A stretch of DNA of 64,000 nucleotides from Myxococcota bacterium (GTDB lineage Bacteria; Myxococcota_A; UBA9160; JAFDDA01), in contig OZ245817.1 in assembly GCA_965228475.1 (NCBI GenBank), forward strand, positions 3,456,001-3,520,000, in the 5' to 3' direction. Both the position numbers and the translations under genes were made by a program. Shown one piece after another: positions 28,897 to 35,226 of this stretch (positions are counted from its first letter, which is position 1; each line of letters begins with the position of its first letter). The notes below the pieces were generated by a model, which worked only from the letters and a program-made list of their open reading frames with translations, searched no databases and was not told where the DNA came from.

Positions 28897-29904
28897 ATGA
28901 CCGAACCGATCGTTTCGGTGCTGCTGCCGGTGCGAGACGCCGAGCGCACCCTCGCCGCGGCCCTGCGAAGCGTCACCCGGCAGACGGAGGAGCGCTTCGA
29001 GTGCGTCGTCGTCGACGACGGCTCCGCGGACGGCTCGATCGAGATCGCCCGCCGCTTCGCCGCCGAGGACGAACGCTTCCGGGTGATCGAACGGCGCGCC
29101 GAAGGCCTGGTCCCCGCCCTGAATGCGGGGCTCGAGGCGTGCCGAGGCCGTTTCGTCGCGCGCATGGACGCCGACGACGTGATGCACCGCTGCCGGCTCG
29201 CCCAGCAGCGCGACGCCCTCGAAGAGGACGCCGGCCTCGCGGCCGTCGGCTGCCACGTCCGCCTGTTTCCGGACGGCGAGGTCGGAGACGGAATGCGCGA
29301 GTACCAGGCCTGGTTGAACGGGTTCCGGGGCGAAGCCGAACTCCGCCGCGACGCCTTCGTCGAGTGCCCCCTCGCCCATCCGACCTGGTTCGGACGCCGC
29401 GCCTGGTTCGAAGCCCACCGCTACCGCGACCGCGGGTGGCCCGAGGACTACGACCTCTTCCTGCGCGCCCTGGCCCGTGGCGACCGCCTGGGCGTCGTCC
29501 CGGAGCCGTTCCTCGCCTGGCGCGTGGGACCAGAGCGCCTCTCGCGAACCCACCCGAGCTACGCGATCGAACGCTTCGTCGCGTGCAAGGCGCACTTCCT
29601 CGCCGAGGGATTCCTCGCGGAGTCGGACGAGTACGTGCTCTGGGGATACGGCGGCACCGGCCGGGCCCTGCGCGCGGCCCTCGAGGCCCACGGCCGGCGG
29701 CCCTCGCACATCGTGGAGGTCCATCCGGGACGCCTCGGCCAGCGCATCCACGGCGCCGAGGTGATCGAACCCGCGGCCCTCCCCGCGCTTCCGCGCCGGC
29801 CGCTGCTCGCGTCGGTCGCCGGCGCCGAGCCGCGGGCCGAAGTCCGGGCGGCCCTCGCGCGGATGGGATTCGAGGAGGGGACCGACTTCCTCAGCGTCGC
29901 CTGA
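28897..29904 (+). CDS. GT2 glycosyltransferase with C-terminal Rossmann-like extension (QTGAL/B3GNTL1-like)
   Basis: VSVLLPV, DDGS, MDADD, HPTWFGRRAWF, PEDYD, WGYGGTGR, EEGTDFL. Confidence 0.85.
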   Translation: MTEPIVSVLLPVRDAERTLAAALRSVTRQTEERFECVVVDDGSADGSIEIARRFAAEDERFRVIERRAEGLVPALNAGLEACRGRFVARMDADDVMHRCRLAQQRDALEEDAGLAAVGCHVRLFPDGEVGDGMREYQAWLNGFRGEAELRRDAFVECPLAHPTWFGRRAWFEAHRYRDRGWPEDYDLFLRALARGDRLGVVPEPFLAWRVGPERLSRTHPSYAIERFVACKAHFLAEGFLAESDEYVLWGYGGTGRALRAALEAHGRRPSHIVEVHPGRLGQRIHGAEVIEPAALPALPRRPLLASVAGAEPRAEVRAALARMGFEEGTDFLSVA

Positions 29905-31645
29905 CGCGCGCGCCACCGGTGAGATCGAGGTGCTGGTAGAGCGCGCCGTCGCGGAAGCCGAGGCGCCGGTAGTAGGGACGGGTCCCGACGGCCGAGATCA
30001 CGGCCATGCCCTCGTGCCCCGCGCGGTGCGCGCGCGCCGCCGCCGCAGCGACGAGCCGCCGCCCGAGGCCGCCGTGCTGGGCGTGCTCCTCCGCGCGCTG
30101 CCCCGGCGCCAGGGCCGGACCGTAGACGTGCACCTCGCGCAGGAGTGCGGCGTTCCCGAGCTCCTCGAGCGGCGCGGACTCTCCCGGAAGCGAGAGGCGC
30201 GCGAATCCCACGATGCGATCGGCTCCATCGACGGCCTGGAGGAAGACCTCCGTGCCCGCCGCGCTCGCGTACTCCGTCCGCCGCAGGGAGAGATCCCCGG
30301 CGACGGCGGCACCGCCGATCTCGCGGCTCCGGATGTCGAGACAGCGGCGCCCGCTCGCCGCGAGCGAGCGCTCGGCGACCTCGCGATAGTTCGTGCGCCG
30401 GTTGCCGACGAGGATCTCCTGGGAGGGGATGTCGCGGATGACCCGGGAGAGCCGGCAGTACTCGGGCACGACCGAGAGCGCATCGGTCAGGAGCCCCGTC
30501 AGTTCCTCGTCGCCGTAGGGGCGCCAGCGCCCGGCCGCGTGGTGCGCGACCAGCTCGGTCCCGTCGATCAAGCTGCACGGATAGATCTTGAGCTCGTCCG
30601 GCCGGAGCGCCGGATCCCGGAACAGCTGACGAAGCTCCTGGCGATCGGACGCCGGCGTCGCACCGAGCAGGTTCGGCATCCAGTGGAGCTGCACCTTGAA
30701 CCCGGCGCGCCGAAGCAGCGTCGCGGCACGGCGCGAGCAGGCCGCATCGTGCCCGCGCCGGTTTCGGCGGAGGATCTCGTCGTCGAGGCTCTGGACGCCG
30801 AGCTGGATCTTCGTCGCCCCGAGCTGACGCAGCCGGAGGAGCTCCTCGGCGTCGATCGCGTCCGGACGGGTCTCGAGCACGAGGCCCACGCAGCGCACGG
30901 AGGCGGACTCGTTGCGGCGCTGGGCTTCCCGAAGCGCCTCGAGGGAAGCGGACTCCTCCGCCTCCGGCTGCTCCCGAATTCGCGCGCGGACGACGTCGTT
31001 GTACGCGCCCTCCGTCCCGATCCGGAGGTCCTCGAACCCCGATCGGGCTTCCGTTCGCGGCACGGCCCGCTCGATGACGCCCCAATCGTTCAACGCGTCG
31101 AAGCATCGCTTCACGAACCAACGCTGGTATCCCGCCGGATAGTGCGACCACGTCCCTCCGAGCACGAGGATCTCGGCCTTCTCCACCGGGTGTCCGTTCG
31201 CGTGGAAGGCCCGCAGGCGCTCGAAGGTCTGTTCGTAGGGATCGAAACGATGCGCCTCGGCCCGCTGACAGCCGGGCTCGCTCGCGATGTAGCTCTTCGG
31301 CATGGTCGGATCGTTCGGGCAGAAGATGCAGCGCCCCGGGCACGGGAAGGGCTTCGTGAGCACGGTGACGGGGGTGACGCCGCTGCGCGTGCGAACGGGC
31401 TTGCGCCGCAGACGCCGGAGGAAGACCGCCTCGTCCAGGGCCAGACGGCTCTCGGCGCCGAAGGCCCGGAACCCGGCGATCAGGTCGCTGCGCGAGTAGA
31501 AGCCGCTACCGTCCTTGGGATGACGGCGCAGCAGCGCATCGATCGCCCGAGGCGTCCACTCCTCGAGCTCCTGGAAGGCATCCAGCAGTGCGACGAGGGC
31601 GCTTCGATGGCGCGCGGGGTCGAAGGCTCGCGGTGCGGTCGCCAT
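29891..31645 (-). CDS. elp3: tRNA uridine(34) 5-carboxymethyltransferase Elp3 (radical SAM + KAT)
   Basis: KPVRTRSGVTPVTVLTKP, CPGRCIFC, LGGTW, ETRPD, GVQS, HWMPNL, RPDELKIYP, RVIRDIP, LREVHVYG, QHGGLG, VISAVGTRPYY. Confidence 0.93.
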   Translation of the reverse strand: MATAPRAFDPARHRSALVALLDAFQELEEWTPRAIDALLRRHPKDGSGFYSRSDLIAGFRAFGAESRLALDEAVFLRRLRRKPVRTRSGVTPVTVLTKPFPCPGRCIFCPNDPTMPKSYIASEPGCQRAEAHRFDPYEQTFERLRAFHANGHPVEKAEILVLGGTWSHYPAGYQRWFVKRCFDALNDWGVIERAVPRTEARSGFEDLRIGTEGAYNDVVRARIREQPEAEESASLEALREAQRRNESASVRCVGLVLETRPDAIDAEELLRLRQLGATKIQLGVQSLDDEILRRNRRGHDAACSRRAATLLRRAGFKVQLHWMPNLLGATPASDRQELRQLFRDPALRPDELKIYPCSLIDGTELVAHHAAGRWRPYGDEELTGLLTDALSVVPEYCRLSRVIRDIPSQEILVGNRRTNYREVAERSLAASGRRCLDIRSREIGGAAVAGDLSLRRTEYASAAGTEVFLQAVDGADRIVGFARLSLPGESAPLEELGNAALLREVHVYGPALAPGQRAEEHAQHGGLGRRLVAAAAARAHRAGHEGMAVISAVGTRPYYRRLGFRDGALYQHLDLTGGARVRRR

Positions 31646-31671
31646 GGTGGCGGGAAGATAGGGGCTGGGCG

Positions 31672-32433
31672 ATGACCGACGAAACCGCCCACCGCCTGGA
31701 CGCCCTCTGCCGCCGCTTCTACGCGCGCAACGCCGCCGACTTCAGCGCGACGCGGCAGGCGGCCTGGCCGGGCTGGGAACGCTGCCTGCCCTATCTGCTC
31801 CCGAGCGAGCCGGACCCGGGCGGCGAGCCGAGCTGGCGGCTGCTCGACGCGGGCTGCGGGAACGGGCGCCTCGCCGCCTTCCTGGCGGAGCGCTCCCCGG
31901 GCCGGCTCCGGTATCTCGGCGTCGACGCGAGCCCGGAGCTGATCGAGGAAGCGCGCGGCTCGCGGGGAGCGGACGCCCGCTTCGCCGTCGCGGACCTGGT
32001 GACGCTCGACCCCGCCGGGCTCGGTGAGGCGAGCTTCGACGCGATCGCCCTCTTCGCCGTCCTGCACCACGTGGCGGGGCGCGAGCGCCGGGAGGCGCTG
32101 CTCGCGCGGCTCGCGGGTGCGCTCGAACCCGGCGGACACCTCGTCGCGACCGTGTGGCGCGCCGACGCCTTCGCGCGCTTCCGCGACAAGATCGTTCCGT
32201 GGGAATCGTGCGAGGCACGGACCGGCATCCGGGTGAGCCCGGAGGAGGTCGAACCCGGCGACGTCCTGCTCCCCTGGAAACACGACCCGCGCGCGCTGCG
32301 CTACTGCCACTTCCCGGACGAGGACGAGGCCAATGCGCTGGCCCGCGCAGCGGGCCTGCCCCTGCGCGAAGCCTTCGACGCCGACGGGCGCGAGGGCGCG
32401 CTCAACCGCTACTGGGTGTTGGGACCCCGCTAG
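31672..32433 (+). CDS. Class I SAM methyltransferase, Trm9/ALKBH8-like
   Basis: FY..NAADFSATRQAAWP, LDAGCGNGR, FDAIALFAVLHH...RERR, PGG...TVW, GDVLLPW, RYCH. Confidence 0.82.
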   Translation: MTDETAHRLDALCRRFYARNAADFSATRQAAWPGWERCLPYLLPSEPDPGGEPSWRLLDAGCGNGRLAAFLAERSPGRLRYLGVDASPELIEEARGSRGADARFAVADLVTLDPAGLGEASFDAIALFAVLHHVAGRERREALLARLAGALEPGGHLVATVWRADAFARFRDKIVPWESCEARTGIRVSPEEVEPGDVLLPWKHDPRALRYCHFPDEDEANALARAAGLPLREAFDADGREGALNRYWVLGPR

Positions 32434-35078
32434 TCCTGGAGTGCCCGCAGGACTTCCGCCTCGTAGGCCTCGAGCGAGTCGTACATGCGGAAGGGAGCGC
32501 CGGTCGCCGAGCGCTCGTCGGGCATCGGCAGCGCCCCGCTCTTGGCGAGCAGGTCCGCCAGCCACTCCTTCAGCGCGGCCGAGCCGCCCGAAGCGTCGGG
32601 CACGAGCTTGCGCGGATCGAACCGGTCGCTGCGGAAGCGGACGATCTTGAGCGGCTGACCGTCGTCGGCGAGCCAGTTCGTCAGCAGGTCGATCAACACC
32701 ACGGGCTTGGGCTTCAAACCGCGCACGCCCGCCACGGCGATGGCGTCGATGCGTTCGAGGCCGAGCGTCGCCTTGCCACGCTCCCCGACGTCGACGACCA
32801 GCGCCTCGGCGTTCAGGCTCACGGGCATCGCATCCATGCGCTTCAACGGTCGGCGCGGGGGCGACGGCGCACCCGCATCCTCTTCCAACGGCTCGGGCGT
32901 CAGCGCGACGAGCGGTTCCGGCTCGGGAGCCGCGACGGGTTCGGGCCGCTCCGGCTCCGCGGGCTCGGCGACGATCGGCTCGGGGAGCTCGAGCGAGGCC
33001 GGTTCCGGAATCGACGGCTCGGGCTCTGGCATGGGCTCGGGAGCGGACGGCGCGGCCGCTTGCGGTTCGAAGGGCAGCTCCGGCTCGGCCTCGAGATCGA
33101 TCGCCGTCGGATCGAGGGCACTCGGGTCCTCGTCGGCCGCGACGAAAGCAGGAGCGGCGTCGACTTCGGGCACGTCGAGGGCGGCGGATTCGTCGGCCGG
33201 CGCCTCGGCTCCGGGCGATGCGGGGGCATCGTCGAGAACGGAAGCCGGCAGGTCGCCCGTTTCCTCGGGCACCAGGTCGACCTCACCGTGCGAGAGCACC
33301 GCTTCGGGCGCCGGGCTCTCGGTCGGGACCTCCGCGCCGGGGACCGTCATGTCGTCGAGCTCGAAGGGCGCGGCGTTGAGCTCGTCCCCACCCGCCGCGG
33401 TGTCCTCCCGGACGACGGGTGCGGGGACGTCCTCTTCTCCGGCGGAGGCGGCCGGAGCCGGCTCGGCGAGCAGGTCTTCGTGCTCGTCCTCGTCGCCGCC
33501 CGCGTGGGCCTGGAGATCGAAACTGCTCTCGAAGAGCTGTCCGCCCGTCTGCTCGTTGGGATCGTCGGCGCTCGGCGCCGCAGGCGGGGGTGCCGCTTCA
33601 CCCCCTGCGCCGTGCTGCGCCACGAGGCGTTCGAGATCGGCACGCTCCTCGGGGCCGAGGTCCGGCGATGCGAGGGCCGCCTCGGCCGCGCGCAGCGCAA
33701 GGGAGGGATCGAGATCCTCGGCCACACGAGACGTTCTGTGGAGCACGGCGGCGGAGGGCTCCCCACAGTGGCCGTCGAGGATCCGCCCGATCGAGAACTT
33801 CGCGAGGTCGAACTCGCCCGTCTCCATCAAGAAGCCCGCGATGCGAACCTCGAGCGTGGCGTCCACACGGGCGCCGGGCGCGCGCTGGGTGACCTCGCCC
33901 CAGTGGGTGACGGCCAGGGCCTTCTGCCCGGATCCGACCTCGTCGCGCAGCACCCGAAGCAGGGCGCCCGCGGCGTCCTCCGGGCGGCCGACGGCGCTCG
34001 CCACGTCCCAGAAGGCCAGGCAGGCGTCGCGGTTTCCGGGCTGGCTGGCCACTTCGCCGGCCAGCAGCTCGAAGGCCTCCTCGTCGCAGCCCTTCTCGCG
34101 CGCCTCGAGGGCCTGGTCGAGCACGGGGTTCGATTGCTTCGTGCGCTTCTCTTCGAGCGCCGGGTGGATGAAGCGTTCCTCGATCCGGGTGGCCCGCAGG
34201 ATCGCCGCGAAACCGACGCCCCAGACGAGGCCGCTCGCGTGCACCCAGGTGGCAAACTCGGCGCCCGGCGGTTCGATCCCGGGAGCGCCGTGCTTCAGGA
34301 CGTAGTCGACGCCGAGGTAGGTGGCGCCGTAGATCGGGAGCGCCACCCAGCCCTTCGCGGTGAACTTCCCGCCGAAGGGCGGGATGTAGAAGTACCGGAA
34401 GCGGATCGGCGTTCCGGCGAAACGGATCAGGAAGGCCCCGGCCAGGGCCGCGGCGATGCCCGAGGCGCCACCGAGGGCGCCCCCCTCCGGGTCGAGCAGG
34501 GCGTAGCCCGCCGCCGCGGCGGCTGCGGCGCTGACCACGAAGACGGCATAGATCGCGCGCCCCCAGACCTCTTCGAGGAAGAGGCCCGCGAGCAGCACGA
34601 GCACGAGGTTCGCGACGAGATGGAGCCATCCCTCGTGGGCCAGGACGTAGGAGACGATCGTGGCGTCCGGGTCTTCGAGCGTGCTCGGGAAGAAGCCGAG
34701 CCGGAAGAACGAGTGCGCGTCCATCGTGTCGTAGAGTTCGTCGACCATCGCGTCGAACTCCACCTGGTCGTGGTGGACGACGAAGTCCGGGATCGGCGGG
34801 GAGCTGGATGCGGCGTGCCGCGCGCGGAATTCCTGGACCGTCGCCGCGACCCGTTCGGCGCCGAGCAGGTAGGCGAGATCCGCGTCGACCTTCACCCAGG
34901 GACGGACGGCGTAGAAATCCCAAACCGTCTCGAGCTGGACTTCGGTCTTGGCGTCGACCTCGGCGTCGGTCGTGCGGTTCACGAAGAACGCGACCGAGCA
35001 CGCCGCGAGGAGGAGGAGGGTCACCCACGGAAAGCGGCGGGTGCCACGGGCTTCTTCGTTCAGCGGGATGACGATCAC
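32430..35078 (-). CDS. Rhomboid intramembrane serine protease with long cytoplasmic extension
   Basis: HEGWLHLVAN, GGASG (Ser), WVHASG (His), then a TPR-like helical region, acidic Pro/Glu/Ala linker and C-terminal domain. Confidence 0.85.
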   Translation of the reverse strand: MIVIPLNEEARGTRRFPWVTLLLLAACSVAFFVNRTTDAEVDAKTEVQLETVWDFYAVRPWVKVDADLAYLLGAERVAATVQEFRARHAASSSPPIPDFVVHHDQVEFDAMVDELYDTMDAHSFFRLGFFPSTLEDPDATIVSYVLAHEGWLHLVANLVLVLLAGLFLEEVWGRAIYAVFVVSAAAAAAAGYALLDPEGGALGGASGIAAALAGAFLIRFAGTPIRFRYFYIPPFGGKFTAKGWVALPIYGATYLGVDYVLKHGAPGIEPPGAEFATWVHASGLVWGVGFAAILRATRIEERFIHPALEEKRTKQSNPVLDQALEAREKGCDEEAFELLAGEVASQPGNRDACLAFWDVASAVGRPEDAAGALLRVLRDEVGSGQKALAVTHWGEVTQRAPGARVDATLEVRIAGFLMETGEFDLAKFSIGRILDGHCGEPSAAVLHRTSRVAEDLDPSLALRAAEAALASPDLGPEERADLERLVAQHGAGGEAAPPPAAPSADDPNEQTGGQLFESSFDLQAHAGGDEDEHEDLLAEPAPAASAGEEDVPAPVVREDTAAGGDELNAAPFELDDMTVPGAEVPTESPAPEAVLSHGEVDLVPEETGDLPASVLDDAPASPGAEAPADESAALDVPEVDAAPAFVAADEDPSALDPTAIDLEAEPELPFEPQAAAPSAPEPMPEPEPSIPEPASLELPEPIVAEPAEPERPEPVAAPEPEPLVALTPEPLEEDAGAPSPPRRPLKRMDAMPVSLNAEALVVDVGERGKATLGLERIDAIAVAGVRGLKPKPVVLIDLLTNWLADDGQPLKIVRFRSDRFDPRKLVPDASGGSAALKEWLADLLAKSGALPMPDERSATGAPFRMYDSLEAYEAEVLRALQD

Positions 35079-35226
35079 GACGCGGCGTTTCCAGGAATGT
35101 GCTCGACTCGAGACATGCTGCTCCCCGAGACGCAGCCCTGCATGCAAGGCCGCCGTCCCTACGGGGTTCAACGGATGAACGGCCTCGCTCCTGAAGGATC
35201 TTCAGGACGAACTGGGGCACCGGAGC

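Follow-up and report, generated by a model that had tools for sequence, protein, structure and literature searches.

A window of 64,000 nucleotides (the whole stretch of DNA analysed, positions 3,456,001 to 3,520,000 of contig OZ245817.1, assembly GCA_965228475.1, from a Myxococcota bacterium) carries a gene for the tRNA-modifying enzyme Elp3 together with a gene for a Trm9-like class I S-adenosylmethionine (SAM) methyltransferase, and our bioinformatics analyses suggest that these two genes, transcribed divergently, form a module that builds the C5 side chain of the tRNA wobble uridine. Elp3 probably makes 5-carboxymethyluridine at position 34 (cm5U34), which the Trm9-like enzyme would convert to the methyl ester mcm5U34 or, with 2-thiolation, mcm5s2U34. 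Linkage beyond chance holds for elp3 and the methyltransferase gene only, and not for the adjoining family 2 glycosyltransferase (GT2) gene, and the pair occurs only where MnmE/MnmG, the usual bacterial enzymes at this position, are not found. On sequence grounds, the assignment of the pair to the known Elp3-Trm9 pathway, as its bacterial variant, is well supported. The features of the locus are as follows.

28897 to 29904, + strand: GT2 gene, 335 aa, open frame; GT2/GT-A domain at residues 1-240, Rex/CoA-binding-type Rossmann domain at about 243-335
29891 to 31645, - strand: elp3, 584 aa, open frame; predicted stand-alone radical SAM and KAT tRNA U34 carboxymethyltransferase
31646 to 31671, no strand: spacer of 26 bp between the divergent starts of elp3 and the methyltransferase gene
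31672 to 32433, + strand: Trm9-like class I SAM methyltransferase, 253 aa counted from the ATG common to its homologues, open frame

A preliminary description of this DNA had proposed the three genes as a compact island of eukaryote-type wobble-34 enzymes, and its coordinates and layout are borne out in full: GT2 and elp3 are convergent and overlap at their 3' ends by 14 bp, and elp3 stands head-to-head with the methyltransferase gene, a geometry preserved in all linked loci. Two promoters do not fit into the 26-bp spacer, which holds no sigma-70-type site (0.0 expected), so the promoters presumably overlap the coding starts or the transcripts are leaderless. The source genome is a single 5.0-Mb contig, 96% complete, and its closest named homologues carry the labels Myxococcota or Deltaproteobacteria.

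Elp3 and the Trm9-like methyltransferase

The identity of the 29891-31645 product as Elp3, already proposed in the preliminary description, is firm by sequence: it matches TIGR01211 over its full length with 446.2 bits (curated cut-off 350), and its best match in the PDB is the Elp3 of Dehalococcoides mccartyi (DmcElp3, 5L7J, E 2e-104), relative to which its N-terminus is longer by about 80 aa and residues 188-236 form an insertion of about 50 aa. The CxxxCxxC motif of the Fe-S cluster is formed by C102, C106, and C109, and K156, K317, E504, and Y558, mapped by hand on the alignment with 5L7J, are the equivalents of K77, K193, E386, and Y441, the acetyl-CoA residues of DmcElp3 (as given in the accessible text of PMC6367351). 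The three cysteines, K156, K317, E504, and H506 are invariant in the 26 aligned rows, and position 558 is occupied by Tyr in 16 of them and by Trp in 10. The gene is present in one copy in the source genome; in three relatives (G018:C117, G021:C607, and G040:C1) it appears as two pieces, through a frameshift or an assembly error.

The resemblance of the methyltransferase to Trm9, another claim of the preliminary description that was upheld, emerges at the level of the family. As a single query, the protein retrieves generic class I and small-molecule families first, which speaks for a reading in which Elp3 would be an acetyltransferase or radical enzyme acting on a non-tRNA substrate, the methyltransferase would be a small-molecule enzyme, and the linkage would serve another pathway; we consider this reading very unlikely. 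A 29-row family profile searched against PDB sequences places Yarrowia Trm9 (5CM2_Z) first (E 6e-15, runner-up 2e-11), as does a 47-row profile built from several phyla (E 3e-16 over positions 26-233, runner-up 2e-12). Several close homologues are labelled TRM9 at JGI, and most are labelled merely as SAM-dependent methyltransferase.

Eight residues of yeast Trm9 have been reported whose loss kills or cripples activity (PMC4678810, accessible portion including Table 2), and six of them are kept here: R28, D85, H133, W162, W202, and R210 are equivalent to yeast R29, D72, H116, W145, W168, and R241. Across the 47 aligned family rows, these positions are conserved in 46 (R29), 42 (D72; the other five have Glu), 46 (H116), 47 (W145), 36 (W168; the other 11 have Phe), and 47 (R241) rows, respectively. 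N245, kept in 45 of the 47 rows, is the probable equivalent of a seventh residue, yeast N271, and the eighth, Y243, is replaced. The predicted structure is a class I SAM fold of high model confidence (predicted local distance difference test, pLDDT, 94). Taken together, sequence comparison indicates that the protein is probably a cm5U carboxyl methyltransferase.

The proposed sequence of events is as follows. Elp3 would act alone, as in archaea, using SAM, a [4Fe-4S] cluster, and acetyl-CoA to form cm5U34, as orthology and the kept catalytic residues suggest. The Trm9-like enzyme would then methylate the carboxylate through its Arg28/His133 dyad to give mcm5U34, perhaps after activation by a Trm112/YcaR-like protein, which is the speculative part of the scheme. 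MnmA would add the 2-thio group in tRNA Lys(UUU), Glu(UUC), and Gln(UUG), yielding mcm5s2U34, and the modified uridine would help to decode codons ending in A or G in split boxes. In this scheme, the module would take the place of MnmE/MnmG, not found in the lineage.

The candidate activator is encoded elsewhere in the source genome. A search with PF03966 gave no match there, a threshold miss, and the initial conclusion that the source genome has no Trm112 was rejected once PF03966 matches from other genomes were used as queries, which recovered the following gene.

G000:C1:3411593-3411841 (L400:3594-3842), + strand: Trm112/YcaR-like gene, 83 aa, about 44 kb before the window

Its product matches the structures 2K5R, 2KPI, and 2JS4, of which the last two are named as bacterial Trm112 orthologues in the accessible text of PMC5372719; the Trm112 and YcaR models themselves match only below cut-off. 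It has a central insertion like that of XF2673 (2K5R), and close homologues occur in at least six genomes of the source order. PF03966 matches were found in 40 of 80 pair-bearing genomes, many at threshold, and the lack of a match in the other 40 carries little weight because the model misses true members. The same limit applies to the 12 pair-bearing genomes of at most 1.2 Mb (Patescibacteria-like; within G193-G237 and the order genomes), none of which gave a match; the Trm9-like enzyme of these small genomes may work without Trm112.

Linkage, spread, and relation to MnmE/MnmG

The genes were traced in 61 genomes of the source order (order sample) and 151 genomes of the phylum (phylum sample). 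In the order sample, Elp3 is found in 32 genomes and the methyltransferase in 33, both together in 32, the additional methyltransferase being a fragment at a contig end. Of 30 fetched order loci, 29 show the two genes head-to-head, and the 30th is cut by a contig end; judged by coordinates, the arrangement holds in all 32 Elp3-bearing order genomes. The conservation of the neighbourhood, proposed as a check in the preliminary description, holds for the pair and fails for GT2. Beyond the order, we used the best 80 of 597 confirmed Elp3 loci from a GTDB scan, which include members of the source order, Acidobacteriota, Chloroflexota, and Patescibacteria; among these 80, the methyltransferase gene lies upstream of elp3, on the opposite strand and within 6 kb, in 48, or in 48 of the 74 loci with at least 1 kb of upstream sequence. 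When 50 whole genomes were chosen from the 80 (most records with a deltaproteobacterial or spirochaete title and the shortest contigs being set aside), the methyltransferase was present somewhere in the genome in 48. No third gene recurs beside the pair across lineages among the neighbours listed.

The pair and mnmG did not coincide in any genome searched. The gene mnmG was detected in none of the 61 order genomes and in none of the 50 other Elp3 whole genomes (the same search being positive in 9 of 14 controls; the completeness of the 50 is not given). Across the phylum sample, 24 genomes have Elp3, 83 have mnmG, none has both, and 44 have neither. Because so many genomes have neither, part of this mutual exclusion reflects lineages that lost mnmG anyway. 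In the source genome, mnmE, mnmC, and cmoB gave no match over cut-off, and mnmA, queA, queG, two tgt genes, and the expected U34 tRNAs are present. The tgt genes are at G000:C1:4985176-4986261 and 2371036-2372073, one of them adjoining queA, and two GluRS/GluQ-like genes score under the GluQ cut-off. The order genomes that have neither Elp3 nor mnmG include G001, G005, G008, and G012.

Several observations weigh against the predicted pathway and have to be set beside this evidence. Trm9 does not stand out in fold searches: Foldseek with the methyltransferase model places 5CM2_Z, whose crystal form is truncated, at rank 36, although its target-normalised TM-score (0.76) is the highest listed, and in a second structural comparison, 5CM2 is not among the 50 rows listed, at the head of which stands METTL6 (Z 21.1, rmsd 3.4, 224 aligned), an enzyme that methylates C32. 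At the position of yeast Y243, the protein has C212, and none of the 47 family rows has Tyr (C in 38, V in 4, A in 3, and S in 2), although Y243A lowers the activity of yeast Trm9 tenfold (PMC4678810, in part); this replacement lowers strict Trm9 membership but not the claim that the enzyme works like Trm9. The assignment of N271 requires a 6-residue insertion and lies just past the end of the hidden Markov model alignment. Elp3 occurs without the methyltransferase in 2 of the 50 whole genomes and in 3 of the 5 Elp3-bearing phylum genomes outside the source order, and the finding of neither Elp3 nor mnmG in 29 of the 61 order genomes, as in the 44 phylum genomes above, means that the module is dispensable. 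The related genomes are, moreover, not independent of each other, and Patescibacteria are without many genes. Finally, DmcElp3 was only weakly active, and the accessible part of PMC7663514 states that xcm5U has yet to be measured in a bacterium.

Such points bear on a rival in which the pair acts on tRNA U34 but its product is not mcm5U, another group being methylated, the ester being converted further to ncm5U or some other derivative, or a different base of the anticodon loop being methylated, as C32 is by METTL6. The replacement of Y243 throughout the family and the leading position of METTL6 are in its favour, as is the report that Haloferax trm9 mutants turn cm5U into something else (PMC6144793, in part). 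On the other hand, R29 and H116, the Arg/His dyad to which binding of the cm5U carboxylate has been ascribed (PMC4678810, in part), are conserved in 46 of 47 rows, the strict co-occurrence with Elp3 is what an enzyme requiring the Elp3 product would show, and Z values that differ by 1-2 cannot tell one class I methyltransferase from another. We regard this alternative as unlikely, and mcm5(s2)U34 formation by Elp3 and the Trm9-like enzyme is the reading that we retain as probable.

The GC content of the three genes matches that of their neighbours and so does their GC at third codon positions (0.89-0.93 against 0.88-0.94), and a horizontal island by composition was rejected. Phage carriage was likewise rejected, since no phage copy of the source Elp3 clade was found: Elp3 had no match in 50,697 phage records, and relatives of GT2 were not detected in viral contigs. 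IMG/VR contains at least 375 Elp3-like stretches, 28-38% identical, many of them in metagenome-assembled genomes labelled as giant viruses; among 79 IMG/VR Elp3 loci (L233-L311), neither the methyltransferase, as judged by the Trm9-like profile, nor GT2 was found, and the eight IMG/VR Elp3 proteins placed in a tree fall apart from the bacterial clade. This tree was built by a quick method and without archaeal or cellular eukaryotic rows; therefore, we claim neither a donor nor a direction of transfer.

Some further observations concern the small genomes of the GTDB sample. In several Patescibacteria-like genomes (L078, L111, L112, L114, L122, L130, and L136), tRNA genes are found at most 6 kb away from elp3, the majority of them having U34 anticodons (Gln UUG, Leu UAA, Pro UGG, Gly UCC, Arg UCU, and Val UAC), a proximity that is likelier by chance because these genomes are small. 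Titles are doubtful among L101, L112, L115, L126, L130, and L099, where genomes of 0.8-1.1 Mb titled Pseudomonadales share neighbours with Patescibacteria and one titled Bacteroidetes has neighbours in common with Chloroflexota.

The neighbouring GT2 glycosyltransferase

The preliminary description had counted GT2 as a third member of an anticodon-remodelling island that would give the host both mcm5U and glycosyl-queuosine, and this is where the analysis departs from it: what stands is a conserved pair of Elp3 and a Trm9-type enzyme, predicted to be a bacterial mcm5U34 route where mnmE/mnmG are not found, and GT2 drops out. In the order sample, GT2 is present in 48 genomes, at nearly the same rate with Elp3 (25 of 32) as without it (23 of 29). 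Of the 25 genomes with both genes, three (G000, G002, and G006, from two families) have GT2 next to elp3; in most of the others, the two genes are on different contigs, with no GT2 in the 1.5-kb flanks of elp3. At an E value of 1e-55, the GT2 family was found in none of the 50 other Elp3 whole genomes, in a search with a profile that gives 229 bits to a Bacteroidota member of 30% identity. Conversely, no elp3 or methyltransferase match was found in 80 metagenome GT2 loci or in 29 further loci. In G001, of the same genus, which is without the pair, accD-like, GT2, rhomboid, ceramidase-like, acyl-CoA dehydrogenase, and PilZ-like genes are kept in the same order, with about 300 bp at the position occupied by the pair in the source genome. 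GT2 and elp3 are not co-transcribed, as they are convergent. A single selected unit of the three genes remodelling position 34 could draw on the recurrence of the gene order in three genomes of two families and on the queuosine pathway of the source genome (queA, two tgt genes, and queG), but it is set against the independent distribution of GT2, its retention in G001, the convergent orientation, and the ordinary composition, and we find it barely credible. GT2 would rather belong to an older block (accD-like, PHP, GT2, rhomboid, and ceramidase-like), in which the pair sits by happenstance in two families. We conclude that GT2 is an orphan two-domain family outside polysaccharide clusters and is a neighbour of the pair, not a member of it.

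The rhomboid-domain gene of this block (window 32430-35105, - strand) encodes a protein whose long middle part is acidic and of low complexity and whose C-terminal domain is conserved, and the stop of this gene overlaps that of the methyltransferase gene by 4 bp.

What GT2 itself does is a separate question, for which its neighbourhoods suit a stand-alone intracellular enzyme and are compatible with a tRNA acceptor. The protein matches PF00535 and is soluble-looking, its two domains being modelled with a pLDDT of 95.6; the C-terminal domain matches Rex, VioB, and PF02629 (the latter in 26 of 98 members), and D91/D93/D94 (the DxD motif) and E183/D184 are invariant. The family is large and single-copy per genome, occurring in 54 of the 151 phylum genomes, with further members in Pseudomonadota, Verrucomicrobiota, and Bacteroidota clusters. 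Human QTGAL (B3GNTL1), the vertebrate queuosine galactosyltransferase, has the same layout of a GT2 domain and a C-terminal Rossmann-like domain at similar length. That GT2 is a bacterial QTGAL-like enzyme adding hexose to queuosine-34, unlinked to the pair, is less likely than not; an acceptor other than tRNA, such as a small molecule, a lipid, or a protein, appears rather likely.

In favour of a QTGAL-like role are the single copy per genome, the domain layout, and the gene neighbourhoods. The 120 nearest GT2 neighbours (from 74 of the 80 metagenome loci) are nearly all unrelated housekeeping genes, the exceptions being one sugar epimerase, one DUF2079 protein, one tgt directly downstream of GT2 (L361), and serS, leuS, and proS once each. 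Against it, the chance probability of the lone tgt neighbour is 0.03-0.06, and queA, present in 149 of the 151 phylum genomes, is too common for its co-occurrence with GT2 to inform, so that the queuosine pathway of the host lends weak support. The PDB matches of GT2 are generic GT2 enzymes, and the DxD motif is not diagnostic because it is common to many GT2 enzymes; QTGAL is not among the listed matches of the fold searches, which identify folds only, and its absence from them excludes nothing. Sugar-modified queuosine is reported for vertebrates only, and glutamyl-queuosine for bacteria, in the accessible text of PMC10690763. Around GT2 in 20 regions from the phylum, where the scan covered 86 of the 142 called genes, no partner recurs across families.

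GT2 is convergent with a putative asnS, identified by eye, in 8 of the 30 order loci from three families (L035, L047, L049, L051, L053, L054, L057, and L059); tRNA-Asn is a queuosine tRNA, and the arrangement, which may be an old gene order, can be counted with the neighbours that fit a tRNA acceptor. Two natural-looking fusions (P0243 and P0394) carry a methyltransferase at the N-terminus of GT2, which was rejected as Trm9-like because its score of only 16-19 bits against the Trm9-like profile marks it as a member of another family. A 2-thiouracil desulfurase domain is joined to GT2 in P0308 and a CYTH domain in P0317, and other long forms are singletons or over-extended-looking frames. A combined account, in which mcm5(s2)U34 formation by Elp3 and a Trm9 activated by Trm112/YcaR and hexosyl-queuosine formation by a large unnamed bacterial QTGAL-like family would be two systems, their products until now attributed to eukaryotes alone (mcm5U also to archaea), inherited separately and meeting here by gene-order history, seems to us doubtful as a whole.

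Relation to known systems

Most bacteria use MnmE/MnmG at U34, and in the accessible parts of the reviews, bacterial Elp3 is called rare and no bacterial Trm9 is named. Bacterial Elp3 as such is already known (PMC6367351, PMC7663514, and PMC13315578, each in part), mcm5U chemistry is known from eukaryotes and Haloferax (PMC6144793, in part), and, according to the accessible text of PMC5372719, bacterial genomes yielded no homologue of the methyltransferases that depend on Trm112. The queuosine derivatives galQ and manQ are placed in vertebrates (PMC11755703 and PMC10690763, in part). In the literature searched, which left most subscription papers outside, no description of a bacterial Elp3-Trm9 pair or of bacterial queuosine glycosylation was found. 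Four phyla, Myxococcota, Acidobacteriota, Chloroflexota, and Patescibacteria, have a Trm9-like gene tied to elp3, and in every case searched, mnmG was not found alongside. From this we predict that bacteria have a second way of modifying the wobble uridine, in which the Trm9-like enzyme would supply the step after Elp3 that had been lacking and in which bacterial Trm112/YcaR proteins may find a role. The two genes together are open to testing in E. coli. If GT2 does glycosylate queuosine, sugar-modified queuosine would not be vertebrate-only. The preliminary description had also suggested protection from anticodon nucleases, for which we found no support; in yeast, loss of Trm9 activity leads to resistance against zymocin, an anticodon nuclease (PMC4678810, in part), so that the modification is there a target mark.

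The closest parallel is the minimal archaeal mcm5U34 pathway of Haloferax volcanii and Sulfolobus solfataricus, which consists of a stand-alone Elp3 and Trm9-Trm112, the elp3 and trm9 genes being clustered in S. solfataricus (PMC6144793 and PMC5372719, in part). The bacterial locus shares with it an Elp3 that would work without Elp1/2/4-6, a linked Trm9-type methyltransferase, and a small Trm112-family protein in the genome; it differs in its bacterial host, in the head-to-head genes, in the Cys at the Y243 position, and in that thiolation would come from MnmA. The same chemistry is predicted as for eukaryotic Elongator with Trm9-Trm112 (S. cerevisiae; Y. lipolytica 5CM2) and for the methyltransferase domain of ALKBH8, but the other Elongator subunits are not expected, RRM and AlkB domains are lacking, and, compared with eukaryotic Trm9, the methyltransferase has an additional helical segment inserted at about 165-195 and a loop inserted ahead of its last strand. 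D. mccartyi Elp3 (5L7J and 6IA6) is likewise bacterial, is the closest solved sequence, and has the same Fe-S and acetyl-CoA residues, whereas the source Elp3 has a long archaeal-type N-terminus and the insertion of about 50 aa. GT2 would resemble vertebrate QTGAL in fold, length, and the C-terminal Rossmann-like domain, but the bacterial family is without a consistent link to queuosine genes. With MnmE/MnmG/MnmC, which form (c)mnm5(s2)U34, the module would share the tRNA position and the role of a C5-methylene side chain, yet the enzymes are unrelated and mnmG was not found in any Elp3-bearing genome searched.

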